A stretch of 64,000 bases of DNA from Perkinsus olseni. Taxonomy: Eukaryota. Below, one piece after another: positions 1,856 through 64,000 of the stretch (its first letter is position 1; each line of letters begins with the position of its first letter). The stretch lies in the NCBI GenBank assembly GCA_013115125.1, contig JABANN010000003.1, positions 1 through 64,000 of the forward strand, given 5' to 3'. Below the pieces are notes generated by a model. It worked only from the letters and a program-made list of their open reading frames with translations. It was not told the origin of the DNA and searched no databases. The translations under genes were made by a program, and so were the position numbers.

Positions 1856-4031
1856 TCAGAATGTCTTCTTCGCTAGAGTTCTACGGATGTTATGCCGATC
1901 TTCATCGTATTCCTTCCGCGTGACGCACATGTAGTCCACGAACGTGCTCATAGATGCAATCATTGATCCGCCGACCCATGCTGCATATCTATCGAAGAAT
2001 GAACATTCACGTCGTAAATTTCCGTGTACTCGGTAGTTTCGTGTATTTCACGAAACCACTAAATACACAGGTTCGTCAGTAGATTGATTCTAGGAAGAGT
2101 CCTATGATCCATCCCTTGGTTAATCCTGATCCACGATGGATCCTAGGGATCATTTTCCCTGCCAGTATGATTCGTGTGTCCAAATCCAAGCGTGAGTATT
2201 CCACCTCACTTCCTCTGGGAGTCAACCCTGACTTTCACTGGCTCGTTGGAGTCGCCCATTCCACAAGCGTTGAGCGCGTTCTCCAATCGAGTAGCCACCC
2301 CCGGTAACATCGATGAGCCGCCAGATACGTAAATATTGTCGAGTACGTCTGGCCTAAAATATTATCATAAGACCTGCTCAGGTACACCGCAGAAGCCTCA
2401 CCTTATCTCTGGGTCAACAGCTTCCAGCGCAGACTGACAAATGCTCGCTACAGTGCCATCGGCTCTACTGTTCACGACCTCGCCATTCTCTTCCGTGATC
2501 ATGTTCTTGGAACAGAAGAGCCTGAGAGCATCCTCTCGTCGAGGTATATTCGACCTGTGCCTACACTTCGGGGGCATCCAAGCAGCAAAGCCCATCCACC
2601 TGCACTATGCTGCCATCTGGCAGCTCGAAGGGGCCGCCCTTGGAGCTCGGAGAAGTGCCGGCCTGATCTCGATACACATGTTCGCGATCCAGTCCACCGC
2701 TGGAGTATGTATGTGAGACCACAAGACCGACTTCGAATGGCGAACATGTTTCCTCCGAAGATTACTACTTGGGTTCGATCCTTATCTTCAACATCACCAG
2801 CTCGGAGCTGAGACACACTTAATCCCAGCGCATTACGAATTGGCAGCTCGCTCACTTGACAGAATTTTTCCTTCATATCAGCATAAATGAAATATTCACT
2901 GCCTGACTTCGCTGCCCCCGTGACCTTCGATGCGACGGTAGGTTGGCGCTGCGAGATGACTTCCCTCAGATGCTCGGTTACATCCATACCTGGGCACGTC
3001 ACCGAAGTCCCCGTGCAACACCAGCCTGCCAGCAGCCCTTACCGGCTTTATTCAAGCGGAAGGTAGCATGGGGGATAGCAAATCCTTGAAAAACCGGTGT
3101 GGCGTGCGTAACCTTCCGAAGAAAGGCTCGCGCCAAGCTAAAGCGAAAAGTGTACCCCTTCGCCGATGTCCACGACTAATCCCGTGGGCATGCCGGTGGC
3201 GAACAAGGAAAGGGCTGCCGTATTCATAATAGCAACAGCTGGCGCGTGGAACTTTTCAAACATGACCTAACTCATGCGAATCGAGGAGCCACGAGAAGGC
3301 CCAAGCTCACCTCAGCCATCCACGCCCTCGTAAAGCTGTTGCCACCCACACCGACAAGCTGCTGATTGCTAGCTGTAGCTACAGCCGTGTTCGAAGGGCA
3401 ATCCGTCAACAACACTGGGAAGTCTTCCAGAGAAACCGACCCTGAAAAATTGCGGGACTTCAGCGGAGCGAGTTTCTGCGTTCCTGAGTTCACCGTCGCG
3501 CCCCCGTTTCGACGGTCTAACTATCTGCCTGAGTGTGTGGTCCCAGAAGGCTTCCAGATCGTCCTTGTCGATAACCTCGCCCCGCAGAATAGGCCTTATG
3601 AACGACGACCTCGACAATACATTATGTCCACTAGCTGAAGGTACCTCCTAAGCTCCTTCCGGGCAGTCGGATGATGAGAACTACTGTTGACATATGCCTC
3701 AACTGCCTGCTCGCCGTATAACTTAACACCCTGGGCCTCGGCTGTACTTGAACGACTGCCATAGCTAGTGTTTCGACCCAGGCTCGAGCTGTCATCATGC
3801 GAGCCTGAGAGAGACCAAGAGATCTATGCCTTCTGCACCCGAAGTAGCAACGTGCTCGAATGACGTACTCCCTCGAGTAATCGCGTCTTGGAAGGCTGCT
3901 GTGGGGACTACTCGTGCTGGAACATCGCAGCCGCTATAACCGACTTTAGTGAAGCCTGATCCCGTATCCACCACAATCACCTCCTTCTCGTCAAAGGTGC
4001 ACTCGAGATCGCTGAAGGCAGTTTCTTCCAT
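1856..4031 (-). CDS. Divergent actin-like / actin-related protein, multi-exon
   Basis: Phosphate-1 loop IVVDTGSGFTKVGYSG; RPILRGEVIDKDDLEAFWDH; phosphate-2 region ALSLFATGMPTGLVVDIGEG..VTHATPVF; C-terminus YAAWVGGSMIASMSTFVDYMCVTRKEYDE; TGA at 1856-1858. Confidence 0.88.
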
Positions 4032-4170
4032 TTACAAGAAACGAGTAGCACCCCCCGTCCATGTAATTGATACAACTAAACAAGTCTACTTCGAGCAAGA
4101 AACGTTCTTTGGTAATCCCGGAGTGTACGTTTGAATGACGTTATGCCGCCGATCGGCATCATTGATATGA

Positions 4171-6179
4171 TCACTCAACCAGCGATGGGTTGATCATGTG
4201 GGTTCTGACCTTGCCATCCGAGCCCGACGAAAGAATCATCTGAGACGAAACGGAGGTCAAGCACCTGTGGAAAGGAGAACTCTAAGCTTACCGTATCATC
4301 GAGCCAAGTGCATCCGGTCACCGCAACTTCCTGAGGCATATCGCATCGTTGGAGTGGCAATCGAGCCGAACGAGAGTCGTAAAGTCTGACGGTGCCGTCA
4401 AGAGAACTTGTGGCTACAAGGTAGTCACTCTTCGGATTCCAGGAAACCTGAGCTCAACGTGAGGATCAGTGTCAGGCCTCGATGCTGCTAGGTGATCTAA
4501 GGTATGAACTTGCTCACCCCTGTGATCGAGCGCTCATGGGTCCTGTACTGCTGCAAGAGCTCAAGTTCCTCCTTGGAGGTGCGCAGATCCCAATAAGCAA
4601 CACGACCATCGTCGTGACCTGTGCAAACTCCAGATCTGTCTGCTGAAACCGCCAGAGCCGTTGCCGCCCTGAAATACGAGTGACGAACATGACAGCGTCA
4701 CACAGAGAGACACAGAGCTCATACCAAAGACGAATTGGTAACACCCGCAGTGCATACCAACGCCAGATGGTTCTTCACCACTGGGAGAGCAAAAACTCGA
4801 GCGCTTGAAGTTCCCTTACCTCGCACAAGGAAGGGTTGCCTTTCGTTTGGCAGCCAGAATGTCCCACAGCGCCAGAGTGTTGTCCAAAGACGCAGACATG
4901 ACAGTTTCCGCGTCTATTTTCACCAACCTGGATGCCCAACGTATCATTTGAGTGGGATGGTTCAGCACGACTCACCTCGTAACACCACAGCCCTCCATGT
5001 GGTGGTCAGCGAAGACCGCTCTCGGACCTGTTACGTCGCGGGACGATTCTAGAAGCAGAGAACGGATCCAACGGGCAGAAGCTGCCCGAGCTGGCCGGCC
5101 TCACCAGTGGAGACATTATACAGCGCAAGAAGCCCGCCGGCATCTCCAGCAACAACGATACTACTGTCCTCCGAGATCGTGAGCGCTGTCACTGCTGCGA
5201 CCCTGATAAACCAAGCAACGGTTTTTCGCCGCCTGCAACATGAGGCTTGCTGCTACCCTCCCCTAATCCCATTGTTGGCGCTCGATATGAGCTCCGGAGA
5301 CTTGTTACCCTCGCCAAGAGAATAGAATCGAACCAGCCCATCGCGGCTCCCTGCGGTCACAAGAGATTCAGCGAGACGATCATAGCCAAAGTTCTATAGC
5401 TCACCTGTAACTACGGTATTCTCTCGGCCGGCGAGCGCGAGCACCGAAGCATCGGAGTCGCGCTGTCCGAAGAGCTTACGATGACCTTCAGATGTATACA
5501 GACTCCACGAGCCTGCAGTGGGCAGGACCAGGTACGATCGAGGATAACAGCAATACACTATTACCCTTCATTGAGCCTGTGGCATACAAGCCTGAACCAG
5601 TACCCTCGATGATCTCAATGCACGAGAGCCACTCTTCTTCTTGAGTAACCTCGGCCGTTTCTGGCTCCGGCATCGCCAGGACGTACCTTTAACACATCGC
5701 GTAACCTTTAGAGACAGACTCAACTATCTAAATTACTCAATCTTGCAGGCAACTTCACTGGACAGGCCGTATTGCGTGTAGAACTCAGCAAGGCTGGTCC
5801 GCAAGAACTGACCGTTGACGATGAAATCGAAGACCACTGGCTCTTCCAGCGAAAGCAGGTCATTCAGCATAGATGATAGGCCTGAGCACACCCGTACCCG
5901 AGCGAGTAAAGACAAAAGTCGGCGCCAGGTCACCAGATCGGGAGAGGTGCCCTTCCAGAACGATAGGATCGTCGGGGATTTGGTATTCCTCAGGCAACTT
6001 CGTCGTGAAAACACCTTCCACCTGAGTTCCAACACGGCTGAACACTCCCACGATCCTGAGCATCCCCACTTGGACGCGAAGGGCGTCCGAAGTACCTGCG
6101 TTATGATCGAGGGAGCTGCTTGCTCCTCTTCTTCGTTCGGGACCTCGTGCATGTCTACGGCAGGCGACGATCCGGCCAT
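4171..6179 (-). CDS. WDR12: Ribosome biogenesis protein WDR12/Ytm1 (NLE domain + WD40)
   Basis: NLE domain GLSSMLNDLLSL..VFDFIVNGQFLRTSLAEF...SSEVACKIEYVLAMPEPE; WD40-type exons; last exon MILSSGSDGKVRTH; stop 4171-4173. Confidence 0.85.
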
Positions 6180-16145: not shown

Positions 16146-16167
16146 CTGTAAGTCTTACACTGTAAGA
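16146..16167. mobile_element. Putative transposon excision footprint (inverted triplication of CTGTAAGA)
   Basis: CTGTAAG-TCTTACAC-TGTAAGA, one base from the perfect X[1-7]+rcX+X[2-8] pattern. Confidence 0.55.
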
Positions 16168-16517
16168 TAGTACTGTTCTCTGAGAACAGCTTGTGTACGA
16201 TTCCTTCTCGTGGGTTGTATCGAGCTTTAGGTATCATGTGCTCCCTTGAGTGCCTCAGCGGCTCTGAATCAGATCCTAGGGTATCTCAGTAACTTTCTGT
16301 AGACCGTTATCCACGACTTCTCTCATATCAATGTAACCTCTCTGCGATAAATATATTCTCCTCAGAACATGGTTTCATAGTCCACGCGGCTTTTCGATGT
16401 CATTGCTCTAGAAGTATCTGTGAATAATTATCTGTCGTTTGGTGGTACGATCTCATATCGCTATCCACTGGCGTACTTCGCCGTGCCTGCCGCACGATTT
16501 TCATTTGTAAACTAGAA

Positions 16518-19294: not shown

Positions 19295-19316
19295 CTCCTG
19301 GACCAGGAGTCCTGGT
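19295..19316. mobile_element. Putative transposon excision footprint (perfect inverted triplication of CTCCTGGT)
   Basis: CTCCTGG-ACCAGGAG-TCCTGGT = X[1-7]+revcomp(X)+X[2-8]. Confidence 0.6.
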
Positions 19317-56439: not shown

Positions 56440-58209
56440 ATGCTTTCTTTCACATTGGCCCTTCTGGCCTCGACTGGGCTCAGTGCAACCGCCGCACCTC
56501 CGTCTGCTCCTCGCGACCGTCTAGATCACGATCACTGTACGGCTACTGCCGTTGACTGTGCAGCCACTGCTGATGGTGGTTGCATAGCCGCGACTAGTGC
56601 TGACGGAAGTCCTCTTGATTTCCGTATGGTTCATGTCCCCCCGAAGACGTACGGGCCAGGCGAGAAGAGAGCTGTTTACAAGCAGTTTCAGAACTACCCG
56701 AGGATCGTCGATGCCTCCCGAGCCCCGAGTTATGCGCCAACCTCGCCCGATCAGAAGCCTAGTATACCTATTGGTTACATCGATATGCCTGAGGGCACGA
56801 CTTACGGCTACTGGGATGCCGCTTATGGTGTCATGAATGAGGCTGGCTTGTCAATGGGTGAAAGCAGCTGTAGCGGTCGCTTGAGCTCTGTTCCCAAGGG
56901 AGACGGGCCGGACGGCAGCGGTGCTCTATTCTGGGTCGGTGAGCTGTCTGACATCGCTCTCGAAGTTTGCTCGACTGCTAGGTGTGCCATCCAGACCATG
57001 GGAAAGCTGGCTGAGGAGCATGGTTTCTATGGTTCTGTCGGTGTGAAGGAGGCTGGTGAGGCTTTGACCATTGCCGATGGTACCGAGGTTTGGGTATTCC
57101 ACATCTTACCTGATGATACTGCCGAAGGAGCAGTGTGGGCCGCTGAGAGAGTCCCCAAGGGTCATGCAACTATAGTTCCTAACGTCTTCGTTATCCGAGA
57201 GATCGATCCGACTGACGGCGACAACTTCATGTTCTCTGACAACATCTTCGATATTGCTTTGAGACTTGGCTGGTGGAATGGTGAAGGACTTCTGGACTTC
57301 GCCGCCACCTACAGTGTTAGTGAATACAACAACCCCTACTACTCTGGCCGTCGTGTGTGGAGAGGTCTTTCTCTCTTCGCCCCCTCGCTCAATCTTGACC
57401 CTACTCTTGGCGTCGAATGGGACCATCCAACTTACCCGTTCTCGGTGGAGCCGGATGAGCCTGTTACAATCGACTTCATGAAGCGTCTATACAGGGATCA
57501 TATGGAGGGCACAGCTTACGATCTGACTGATCATGTCGTTGCTGGTGGGCCTTTCAAGACTCCCAATAGATATGCCGGTGGCCGTGCTGAAGCTACTTTC
57601 CAGCATGGTGCTTGGGAAAGGGCCATCTCTCTCTATCGTACTATGTATTCTTACATTTGTGTCACGTACAAGGACTACAATGTTATCTACTTCGCACCTA
57701 TGACACCCCATGCAAGTGTCTATATCCCGATCATTGTGAAGCACGATCAGACTGTCAAGTCCATTCCCGCTCTTGAGAACGCTTGGCAAGGAGAGTTCAG
57801 CACCAAGTCTCTCTGGTGGGCTTCTGAGGCGGTTTCTAATGTCATGGATCTGAAGTACATGTATATGGTCAACGATGTCAGGAAGGCCCAGTATGAGATT
57901 GAGCACCAGGTTGATGTGATGATGAGCACTAAGACCCCGGACGAGGTCGAGACAGAAATGGATGGATTCGGCGACTATGTCACTGAGAAGTGGTTGAATC
58001 TGCATTATACTCTCCTCGGAAAGTATCAGAACGGTTACTCTGATTGGGGTTATACTAAGGTCGGTTATGGTCCGTCCACCGAGTGGCTCCGTGCTGCCGG
58101 CTTCCAGGACTTTGATGCTACTCCGGAGCAGTTTGCCGCTCTGAGACATCGGTATACTGAGACTCAAAAGGAGGCCGATGAGATCCGAAATTCTGCTTTG
58201 GGTGCGTAA
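56440..58209 (+). CDS. Peptidase family C69 dipeptidase (Ntn-hydrolase), intronless, with signal peptide
   Basis: Signal peptide MLSFTLALLASTGLSATA; H-CTATAV nucleophile Cys; MNEAGLSMGESS; ARCAIQTMGKLAEEHGF; GEALTIADGTEVWVFHI; YSGRRVW; AGGPFKTPNRY; WERAISLYRT. Confidence 0.92.
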   Translation: MLSFTLALLASTGLSATAAPPSAPRDRLDHDHCTATAVDCAATADGGCIAATSADGSPLDFRMVHVPPKTYGPGEKRAVYKQFQNYPRIVDASRAPSYAPTSPDQKPSIPIGYIDMPEGTTYGYWDAAYGVMNEAGLSMGESSCSGRLSSVPKGDGPDGSGALFWVGELSDIALEVCSTARCAIQTMGKLAEEHGFYGSVGVKEAGEALTIADGTEVWVFHILPDDTAEGAVWAAERVPKGHATIVPNVFVIREIDPTDGDNFMFSDNIFDIALRLGWWNGEGLLDFAATYSVSEYNNPYYSGRRVWRGLSLFAPSLNLDPTLGVEWDHPTYPFSVEPDEPVTIDFMKRLYRDHMEGTAYDLTDHVVAGGPFKTPNRYAGGRAEATFQHGAWERAISLYRTMYSYICVTYKDYNVIYFAPMTPHASVYIPIIVKHDQTVKSIPALENAWQGEFSTKSLWWASEAVSNVMDLKYMYMVNDVRKAQYEIEHQVDVMMSTKTPDEVETEMDGFGDYVTEKWLNLHYTLLGKYQNGYSDWGYTKVGYGPSTEWLRAAGFQDFDATPEQFAALRHRYTETQKEADEIRNSALGA

Positions 58210-61500: not shown

Positions 61501-61774
61501 TCGCATCTCTCCACTTCGTCAGAGTACAGCAGCCGTCATACGAGCCCTACGCTAGAAGCTTCCCTCAGGGCATGCCCTAGTCGGGTGGATCCCCTAGCAG
61601 ACCTCCCGCAAGCTCCGAAGAACATCACGTACACCATGTCTCGGTGATTCTTTTCCATCCATGAGTATATCATGTCATGATTTCCTCTTCGATACCTATT
61701 AAGGTCGTTGTGTAGCATACGATGTGGGGACTCATACGAAAAGGGCACAGGCTGCGCCGCGCGGCCAATCCTGA
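58557..61774 (+). CDS. AP3D1: AP-3 complex subunit delta
   Basis: QKNLTALVKEIRA, KSTAVLKMAY, PYLRKKAVL, NNWLTIKLLKLFRLLCPVEDRLPGKL, STKAKSVEVECI, DRNLRFLAL, EDFGWYL. 3' end approximate. Confidence 0.88.
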
Positions 61775-62475
61775 AGGTTAGTGTTAAAGCGATTTTTGTC
61801 TTCGGGACCGATCGGACCGATCGTCCCCGCCCGCTCACGCTATTTGCCGGGCCGGGAATAAATTCAACTTGAGTCCCGACCGAGTATTCGAGTTCGAACC
61901 CTAGGTTACGCTCGTTCAGTGAGCGACGTCCACATTATTGAACAAGAATGCTGAATCGCTCGGCGTCAATTGCATTAACCTAGTCAAGAGCCCGCCTGCT
62001 TCAGAGATAATCTCAGACCTGCTGCTTCGTGTTGAAGATGGATCGACCCATTTTGCCGTTTTGTGTTGCGAGTTGTCTACTTCGGATTCCCGGGTTGGAA
62101 GACGGACGCTAGCCCACAGGGATCTTGGGATGTCTCGAGTTCGCTGCTCCTCGTTAAGAATGTGCCACCCTCGTGGAGTTCAGCAAAGTGGTGATTGTAA
62201 CGCCGTCGCGGTGAATGGTAGAGCTGCACCGCGTGGCGGGTGAATATAGCTGCATCAAGCGCGGATGGAACCGGCGGGCATTCGCTCGGTGCAGGCGCTG
62301 AGATGAGCGTGGGGGTTCGGTCGGTTGTGCGCTAATAAAAGGCGAGTTCCTAGTCGCATCACAGTCCTGCATTGACACACTACCGAGACGCGAGTGCGCC
62401 GGTTGCAGTTGTCTTATCGGAATGGAGTTGACAATCACCTCATCAAGTTCTTTTTTCTTGGACTTCCGTTCAACA

Positions 62476-64000
62476 ATGAGCGTTTCTTCCGACTTTCTGC
62501 AACCTGGTCACTGTACTGCTACTGCTGTAGATGGGGCGGCCACAGCTGACGGCGGCTGCATCGCAGCCACGAGTGCCGATGGTACCCCTTTGGACTTCCG
62601 CCTCGTGTATGCCATCCCGTCAAGCAGGATAATATTAATGCAGTGACGGTCTTCTCTAGGTACATTCCTCCGAAGACGTACGGCCCTAATGGGAAGCGAG
62701 CTATTTACAAGCAGTTCCAGGCCTATCCTCGTATCGTAGATGCGGCGAGGGCCCCCAGCTACGCCCCCACCAAGCCTGATCAGGAGCCTAGTAATCCCAT
62801 CGGTTATATCGACATGCCTGAAGGGACAACTTACGGATATTGGGAAGCTGCCTACGGCCTCATGAACGAGGCTGGTCTTTGCATGGGCGAGAGTAGCTGC
62901 AGTGGGCGTCTCGCCTCGATCCCTATAGGTGAGTGCGATTAGTCAGTAGCCTAAAGACGCGGACCAATTTTTCTGTTCCTTTTGTAGATGAAACCCCGAA
63001 CGGTGCTCTATTCTGGGTTGGAGAGCTGGCAAGCGTCGCTCTGGAGCTTTGTTCCACCGCCAGGAGTGCCATCGAAACCATGGGTCGTTTGGCAGAGGAG
63101 CACGGCTTCTACGGAACCACCGAGGTTGAGGAGGCTGGAGAGGCCTTGACTGTAGCTGACGGCGACGCGGCTTGGGTTTTCCACATCCTTGCTGACGACA
63201 CTGGTAAAGGGGCTATCTGGGCAGCCGAGAAGGTCCCTAAAGGCCACGCGACCATTGTTCCCAATGTTTTCGTCATTCGTGACATCGATCCCGAAGACAA
63301 GGAGAACTTCATGTTCTCTAAGAACATTTTTGATGTTGCGAAGAGGTAAGGTCTTCGCTGTGCTCCTAGTGTTCAGTCCTAGTGGGTTCTTTGCCTCAGG
63401 TTAGGTTGGTGGGATGGTGCTGGTCTTTTGGATTTCACCAAAACATACAGTGTTGGCGAGTGAGCTAGAAGCCTAGCGACAGAGTAGATCATCTCGAGAC
63501 TCCTAGATACACCCATCCCTATTATGCCGGTCGTCGTTTGTGGAGAGCATTTTCCTTGTGGGCCCCCTCCCAGAACTTCGATCCGAAGCTTGGCGTTGAA
63601 GTCGAGCGACCAACATACCCTTTCTCTGTGAAGCCTGATGAGCCGATAACCCTTGACCAGATGAAGAGGTTATACCGAGATCACATGGAGGGTACTCAGT
63701 ATGATTTGACCAGCCACGCGACAGCTGGCGGAGCTTTTAGAACCCCTAACACTGTTAGGCTAACAGGTAAGTTGCCCACGCTTTTTATTGGGGGTTCGAG
63801 GGGAATAATATTGTTATGTATTGGTCGTAGATACGCCGAAGGCGAAGCCGAAGATTCGATTGAGTACGGTGCCTGGGAGCGAGCGATCTCTCTTTTCCGG
63901 ACTCAGTACGCTTATATTGCTGTGAGCTACAAGGGACGTCCCGGGGTGCTCAACTTCGCCATAGGTGAGCAACATGCTCGACGTCTTTTTTATCTCATAC
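62476..64000 (+). pseudogene. Second C69 dipeptidase, intron-containing, with a 14-nt frameshifting insertion (allele may be disrupted); runs off window
   Basis: HCTATAVDGAATADGGCIAATSADG, highly similar to the 56440 copy; at least 5 GT-AG introns; the insertion at ~63752-63765 shifts the frame to a TGA at 63923-63925 if the ancestral splice sites are used. Confidence 0.7.
63745..63766. mobile_element. Putative transposon excision footprint (perfect inverted triplication of CCTAACAG)
   Basis: CCTAACA-CTGTTAGG-CTAACAG; collapsing it to a single CCTAACAG restores TPNRY as in the paralogue. Confidence 0.65.

Follow-up and report, generated by a model that had tools for sequence, protein, structure and literature searches.

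Once a cut-and-paste transposon has left a site, its passage can usually be recognised only by alignment with a relative, and the past activity of such elements is judged from the copies that survive. Hairpin footprints of hAT elements have long been known and frameshifted paralogues are ordinary, and the human rearrangements of the DUP-TRP/INV-DUP type are far larger than the insert described here. Hairpins on the flanks, with nicks one base outside the element, are established hAT chemistry. The one-base offset agrees with the footprint sections of PMC5873905, where each palindrome left by Ac/Ds has at its centre the complement of the base that adjoined the element, most of the joins lying at microhomologies, and the arms of hAT footprints in yeast reach about 20 nt in the relevant parts of PMC5873905, PMC1978519 and PMC3499496. 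In the window, which is the whole 64,000-nt stretch of Perkinsus olseni DNA that was analysed, a dipeptidase gene carries a 14-nt insert that very probably is the footprint of a hAT excision, closed by annealing of opened hairpins over 8 nt of complementarity and leaving a transcribed null allele.

The insert at the exon 5 donor

The following features of the window are used below.

56440–58209, + strand: gene 1, intact intronless C69 paralogue with a hydrophobic N-terminus, template of the structure model (from the sequence).
62476–64000, + strand: gene 2, predicted C69 dipeptidase (secernin-like) without a signal peptide, 10 exons, with its stop at contig positions 64670–64672, beyond the window (contigs, Pfam, translation).
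63745–63766, + strand: probable excision footprint, net +14 nt, at the 3' end of exon 5, W being the presumed 8-bp target duplication (from the sequence; missing in X18, P0129, P0135, P0132 and P0134).
63745–63751, + strand: left target-site copy without the base that would have touched the element (from the sequence; rule shared with 119 of 119 perfect scars).
63752–63759, − strand: full 8-mer, inverted, probably hairpin-derived and common to both opened hairpins, presumably the annealing patch (from the sequence and the inverted pairs).
63760–63766, + strand: right target-site copy without its first base, which rebuilds the CAG/GT donor context (donor used in 3 of 3 RNA-type runs).
63767–63830, + strand: 64-nt GT-AG intron, phase 2 (junction in X7, X8 and X9).

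Positions 63745–63766 read CCTAACA CTGTTAGG CTAACAG and are followed by GT at 63767. The 14-nt inverted triplication that the earlier note had claimed here was confirmed from the sequence: it consists of 7 nt forward, the reverse complement of the 8-mer CCTAACAG and 7 nt forward, and with W=CCTAACAG it follows the formula W[1-7]+revcomp(W)+W[2-8], 14 nt longer than a single W. One base is lost at both ends. The chance of such an insert is 0.25^14 per site, or 0.003 expected per 732 kb. RNA structure around the 63767 donor is unremarkable (z −0.48). Gene 1 reads GGPFKTPNRYAGGRAE at the corresponding site, without the insert, and GGPFKTPNRYAGG across the break region. Gene 3, a third paralogue just outside the window, has a 54-nt intron at the same phase-2 position as 63767–63830. 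The gene 2 intron is 63 nt long in the DNA run X18, and insert and intron together amount to 64+14=78 nt here; both are multiples of 3, which is probably due to chance as the matching intron of gene 3 has an in-frame stop.

Alleles of gene 2 and age of the insert

Four of the 24 listed runs were compared across gene 2, namely the RNA-type runs X7, X8 and X9 and the DNA run X18. No listed run is catalogued as RNA; X7–X9 were taken as transcripts because their contigs skip the GT-AG introns (9, 9 and 8 of 9), which are unskipped in X18. The contigs of X7, X8 and X9 match across the insert with no other letters and no gaps, and in X18, where a single contig spans the site, exactly the 14 nt of the insert are missing. 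Gene 2 and the X18 contig differ at no fewer than 22 coding positions, with at least 17 silent differences and at least 5 replacements. The insert is also absent from two other P. olseni proteins, P0129 (566 aa) and P0135, which read PNRYAEG, and from the P. marinus orthologues P0132 and P0134, which read PNRYAEA. A single ancestral 8-mer and a derived insertion, both proposed in the earlier note, are thus borne out by gene 1, X18 and the intact public proteins of both species. In the public protein P0124 (two accessions) the sequence is PNTVRLTGEAE; the gene model behind it crosses the break through a cryptic acceptor ending at 63841 and thereby hides it. P0124 and P0134 moreover fuse genes 2 and 3 into models of about 1,100 aa, and the RNA contigs of gene 2 end just past its own stop.

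The scar allele has 5 private amino-acid changes and the two intact alleles have 4 and 8, with no sign of long decay, in keeping with the recent origin suggested earlier. Two alleles were met at the site, one with the scar and one empty, and none with an element in place. The insert is real, derived and polymorphic, and with three studies and two public annotations containing it, it is carried by a widespread lineage and is not private.

An assembly error had been named as a possibility, and library preparation can create short inverted copies. This assembly may have been built from the six runs in which all 157 words occur. An assembly or sequencing artefact has nevertheless a negligible probability. 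Three other studies have the insert letter for letter in their spliced contigs and two public annotations contain it, and the scar class to which it belongs decays with age and shuns open frames; at this site an artefact is excluded because the X7–X9 contigs carry the insert and X18 misses exactly its 14 nt.

Splicing and product of the scar allele

The features of the spliced form are as follows.

63759–63760, + strand: possible GC donor created by the insert, frame-keeping (from the sequence; its use was not seen in contigs).
63840–63841, + strand: cryptic acceptor used by a public gene model (absent from RNA contigs).
63923–63925, + strand: premature TGA of the observed mRNA (translation of the spliced form).

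All 9 introns of gene 2 are GT-AG. The earlier note had expected a frameshift through the ordinary 63767–63830 junction to the TGA at 63923, and had proposed comparing this junction with one starting at 63842; in X7, X8 and X9, which come from three studies, 63766 is joined to 63831 (3 of 3 RNA-type runs), and the start at 63842 is seen in none. An insert of 14 nt is no whole number of codons, and an exon therefore does not regain its frame when the element leaves; as the donor survived the excision, splicing would have continued as before and the frame was lost. The main mRNA stops at 63923–63925 and encodes 390 aa, versus 566 aa in the intact form, with 354 residues in frame and 36 out of frame, and 4 junctions lie 3' of the stop. 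As regards nonsense-mediated decay, a UPF1 domain is present in the genome; the depth of contigs is no guide to the relative amounts of transcripts.

Three routes would keep the frame on paper: the GC donor at 63759 (568 aa), the acceptor at 63841 (567 aa) and the kept intron, 14+64=78 nt without a stop (592 aa). Rescue by any of them is unseen in the X7–X9 contigs, which drop rare forms. The earlier note was right that the acceptor ending at 63841 restores the frame with loss of the residues RY, but no RNA contig uses this acceptor, only the public model P0124, and the GC donor and the kept intron had been overlooked. Programmed frameshifting occurs in Perkinsus mitochondria. It was set aside for gene 2, which is nuclear and in which no slippery site was noticed by eye.

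Upstream, the RNA contigs begin at 62443 (window 62443–62476), and an AG ends at 62447. X8 has two loose letters that agree with the last bases of the Perkinsus spliced leader, judged by the primers given in PMC3101222, a weak hint of trans-splicing at this AG.

The C69 dipeptidase genes and the parts lost

The dipeptidase function of gene 2 is predicted from its family. Going by the database names of its relatives, the genome belongs to Perkinsus, most likely to P. olseni. Pfam PF03577 matches gene 2, and in the intact allele P0129 (E 7e-32) the matching stretch runs to residue 464; in the scar allele the C69 domain is incomplete, the frame ending after residue 354. The structure model of gene 1 (pLDDT 92.6) has a fold that matches a Lactobacillus C69 structure (Foldseek E 4e-24, Ntn-hydrolase), and in gene 1 numbering the break follows N376. 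Of the 76 positions conserved among 103 relatives, 14 lie beyond the break (1 of the 13 invariant ones and 13 of the 63 near-invariant ones), and so do, in the gene 1 model, the strands 401–409, 414–420 and 429–433 and all C-terminal helices. R377, which is lost with the acceptor at 63841, is conserved in at least 90% of the 103 relatives.

The genome contains about ten C69 loci (26 matches), at least 9 of them besides gene 2, and gene 2 is the only copy without a signal peptide among the 7 C69 N-termini read. Its P. marinus orthologue likewise has no signal peptide. Three intronless C69 paralogues, 97% alike (56440–58209; G000:C2436), stand beside the intron-rich genes 2 and 3 and are possibly retrocopies. 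Another C69 paralogue shifts its frame by a small insertion without a +14 scar (G000:C168:2017–2032), and the public P. olseni model P0007 begins just past this frame change. A further P. marinus copy of gene 2, the third (P0008), is possibly in decay, as conserved sites have changed in it: S replaces R at the junction, and C replaces the W of the WER motif.

From the spliced form and the structure model we infer that the scar allele is a transcribed null whose enzyme activity has presumably been lost. A different view of the effect, which leaves the origin of the scar as it is, would be that a minor in-frame form still gives a working enzyme and that the allele is weakened, not null. The three routes of 568, 567 and 592 aa would permit this, the allele is widespread and transcribed without a surplus of private replacements, and no second signal-less copy was met among the 7 N-termini read; but all three RNA-type runs show the out-of-frame junction only, nine GT-AG introns of nine disfavour a GC donor, the 63841 form loses R377, and at least 9 other C69 loci are available. 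We regard such a working enzyme as rather unlikely, and the null as the better reading.

A genome-wide class of +14 scars

The earlier note treated the scar as a lone one of unnamed cause. It belongs instead to a class found across the genome, whose one fixed geometry points to hAT excision. Within 731.9 kb of the same genome, 119 distinct perfect scars of the form W[1-7]+revcomp(W)+W[2-8] were found, and the same sequence gave 0 scars for W of 9 or 10 nt and 0 with no base or 2 bases lost. The total of 119 includes transposon-picked stretches, where the density is 358–500 per Mb. In a scan of 269.5 kb for X-gap-revcomp(X)-gap-X there were 21 matches at 6 nt (0–1 in 8 shuffles), each with both gaps 1 nt long, and none at 7 nt. 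In a grid over W of 5–12 nt with 0–3 bases lost, from which low-complexity and self-complementary W were excluded, 468.5 kb contained 40 scars at 8 nt with 1 base lost, and two shuffles contained 0 and 0; all other geometries were at background, three apparent hits at 10 nt with 3 bases lost being scars of the 8/1 type lengthened by chance.

Without targeting, the densities are 85 per Mb in this grid, 122 per Mb at the starts of 20 evenly spaced contigs (8 in 65.7 kb; 90 when weighted by length) and 143 per Mb in chance pattern hits (5 in 34.8 kb), which would give roughly 3,400–5,700 perfect scars in the 39.9-Mb genome, an extrapolation from less than 2% of it. The scars are clumped (variance/mean 2.4); in repeat-rich stretches (L136, L137, L138 and L140) they crowd at 6–16 per 10 kb. 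Aged scars with 1, 2 and 3 mismatches number 28, 34 and 56, versus 0, 2–6 and 17–21 in shuffles. Long open frames contain 9 of 69 scars, compared with 29.7% of random sites (p=0.001), a shortage that is expected if +14 scars in exons are purged. A Pfam scan of the open frames beside scars gave 1 match in 62 pieces (62 of 66 run). One perfect +14 scar (L079:9776–9797, in G000:C2790 at about 79776) lies where a 125-codon open frame that matches Helicase_C comes to its end; this is perhaps another broken gene, or else an intron.

Two further members are located in the window.

19295–19316, no strand assigned: second perfect +14 footprint, W=CTCCTGGT (scar scan).
16146–16167, no strand assigned: third +14 footprint with one mismatch, aged or imperfect (scar scan).

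Weaker scar-like matches with 2 mismatches are seen at 16167–16188, abutting the scar at 16146, and at 61744–61765.

These counts bear on an origin without any transposon, by a short-range template switch (four-point model, order 3-4-1-2) or by micro break-induced replication. A single event fits the four-point model formally, and the inserted piece is, as in template switches, an inverted copy of adjacent sequence. Events of the '4 before 1' order that give direct and inverted repeats occur in great apes according to the pertinent part of PMC7954356, by which an earlier claim of their absence (PMC5453318, same topic) is overturned. However, the model has no rule that fixes 8 nt and the loss of one base per side, the only geometry above background; free switch points predict a spread of lengths and a single geometry was found. 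It also leaves unexplained the target bias, the hAT between two scar halves described below and the fact that long scars have a 7-nt remnant at their far end. A template switch as the cause is very improbable, and was dropped after the gap scan and the geometry grid showed one fixed geometry.

Anatomy of the scars

Excision of a hAT remains the preferred reading, and it is consistent with the palindromes themselves. Those with a 1-nt centre and arms of at least 7 nt number 251 in 536 kb, versus about 33 expected, and palindromes with centres of 0, 2, 3 or 4 nt are near background. A direct-repeat remnant of exactly 7 nt lies beside 134 of the 251 (control 3.8), and the remaining 117 include chance palindromes and aged or deleted cases. 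Among 74 distinct events, 56 are +14 and 18 range from +15 to +49, several of them hairpinned at both ends. The palindrome arms of some long scars reach 27 nt; in three (L058:5828, L082:4811 and L097:6238) they are exactly 27 nt, which may reflect a preferred distance of hairpin opening. The short Ac-type +8 footprint is at background (9 versus 3–10 in shuffles), indicating that opening of hairpins at the tip seems rare here. The pattern suggests that the scar derives from an 8-bp target site duplication, and the palindrome centre appears to be the complement of the base beside the element, as from a flank hairpin with a nick one base out, a rule that both ends of the gene 2 scar follow.

The target sites have a modest bias, with T at W2 or A at W7 in 98 of 238 positions (41%) versus 24% (p=4e-9), and the Buster-type TA at positions 4–5 is at about chance level (5 of 74). 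A T2/A7 target bias is reported for Hermes in the target-site data of PMC8721813 and PMC10512250.

Transposons and repair genes in the genome

The genome has 11 matches to the hAT dimerisation domain. A 4,094-bp hAT in G000:C293 (L094:336–4429) has 11-bp terminal repeats, an 8-bp duplication and the dimerisation domain; its frame is in pieces, and it has a +39 scar of its own near 3002. A hAT frame of 819 aa is found in G000:C521 in two copies. One copy of this family has 16-bp terminal repeats, an 8-bp duplication and intact ends, which for activity today is only suggestive. The other has damaged ends and is located between two scar halves (L104:1480–1515 and L120:95–135), with W[1-7]+revcomp(W) on the left flank and revcomp(W[2-7])+complement(W1)+W[2-8] on the right, from one W. 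These flanks were paired by sequence across a collapsed contig (end of C1438, C521, start of C3003). The element was possibly cut out and recaptured between its own opened hairpins, or it may have been re-inserted into an older scar; under recapture and re-insertion alike, the sequence ties a hAT to the scar geometry. No non-autonomous copies of the two hAT families were found, and the few hAT copies found for thousands of scars count against the hAT reading.

Scars might also come from MULEs or another superfamily with flank hairpins and 8-bp duplications, alone or together with hATs and by the same annealing route. The genome has 18 matches to MULE domains, several of them within 600–900-aa open frames, and 50 perfect scars lie in 100.7 kb of which 13 of the 15 stretches had been picked for MULE hits. 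In these 13 stretches no MULE terminal repeats or duplications were found from which a duplication size could be read, and MULEs therefore stay in play as a rival. The MULE Muta1 makes flank hairpins and duplications of 8–9 bp, but more than 90% of its excisions are precise when duplications flank it (both from the Muta1 sections of PMC5499845). There is no scar version of 9 or 10 bp (0), scars lie in and around all kinds of dead repeat DNA at 358 per Mb of hAT-picked loci, and the sole element found between scar halves is a hAT. Merlin (8–9 bp) has no domain match in the genome, which is weak evidence; it has been described in P. marinus in the part of PMC8101967 that concerns this family. 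We consider an origin from these other superfamilies unlikely, and hATs are the elements to which the scar is assigned in what follows.

Ku and Artemis/Pso2-type (DRMBL) domains are present, and a loss of classical end joining was set aside on this ground; the searches for Ku_N, ligase IV and Upf2 gave no match anywhere, controls included, and carry no information.

Proposed origin of the scar

The insert, its polarity, its splicing, the fixed geometry and the abundance of the class, and hATs with 8-bp duplications were observed directly. From these we infer that an element was once at this site, a repair route and the loss of enzyme activity, the route being as follows. A cut-and-paste element of the hAT type would have entered exon 5 at its last 8 bases, with duplication of W. 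On excision the transposase would nick one base outside each end, so that each target copy loses the base beside the element, and the host ends would be sealed as hairpins centred on the complement of the lost base: on the left flank W1–W7 running into the complement of W8...W1, on the right the complement of W8...W2 running into W1...W8. Both hairpins would be opened at least 8 nt from the tip, one tail then being revcomp(W) and the other W. Annealing of the tails over 8 nt, with trimming and filling, would give W[1-7]+revcomp(W)+W[2-8], always +14, and joins at matches farther out would give the rarer scars of +15 to +49. The donor would have been rebuilt by the right copy, W having been the last 8 nt of exon 5.

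For the species as a whole, we lean towards the view that P. olseni repairs hAT donor sites by one dominant route of long hairpin opening and 8-nt annealing, that nearly every jump should leave a +14 scar, that the genome would hold a countable and datable record, free of any outgroup, of thousands of jumps by few surviving elements, and that visits to exons would be irreversible knockouts which annotations can hide.

Comparison with known systems

The genome-wide class of scars carries more weight than the broken gene. On its own, a null allele of one dipeptidase in a multigene family is nothing unusual, even if the copy hit is the only signal-less one among those read. A scar that identifies itself offers insertion sites, target preference, relative ages and lineage markers straight from the sequence, and scars appear to outnumber the recognisable hAT copies by orders of magnitude. 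The scar also reports how an early-branching alveolate repairs hairpin-capped breaks, an intermediate that occurs in V(D)J recombination too. From this class, further gene models with concealed frameshifts are to be expected; the public one for gene 2 uses an acceptor unsupported by RNA. Within the open-access full texts covered, in the parts that were available and with the classics of subscription journals outside this scope, nothing was found that describes hAT footprints in Perkinsus, one +14 footprint prevailing over all others, or a natural record of this kind that spans a genome.

With peptidase family C69 (PepD dipeptidases, secernins; PDB 5iau, 5img) the gene 2 family shares PF03577, the fold and the N-terminal Cys motif, and differing from that family the scar allele ends too early to include the W-E-R-x-I-S motif, the C-terminal helices and three strands. 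The forward-inverted-forward copy is shared with the four-point template switch and with DUP-TRP/INV-DUP (PMC7954356 and PMC5453318; see also PMC11293582), but a template switch has variable lengths and switch points, no fixed 8-mer and no link to a target duplication. MULEs, represented by Muta1, share flank hairpins and duplications of 8–10 bp (same sections of PMC5499845) and differ by mostly precise excision and long terminal repeats. The hATs (Ac/Ds, Tam3, Hermes and TcBuster), as far as their described footprints go, have the 8-bp duplication, the palindrome rule, joins at microhomology and, in Hermes, T2/A7, and the same is found here. Known hAT footprints are mixed, for the most part short and were obtained at individual sites that had been engineered or marked, whereas here 56 of 74 are +14 and the number in the genome is inferred to run to thousands; the outcome differs from that in plants and yeasts and is a trait of host repair.
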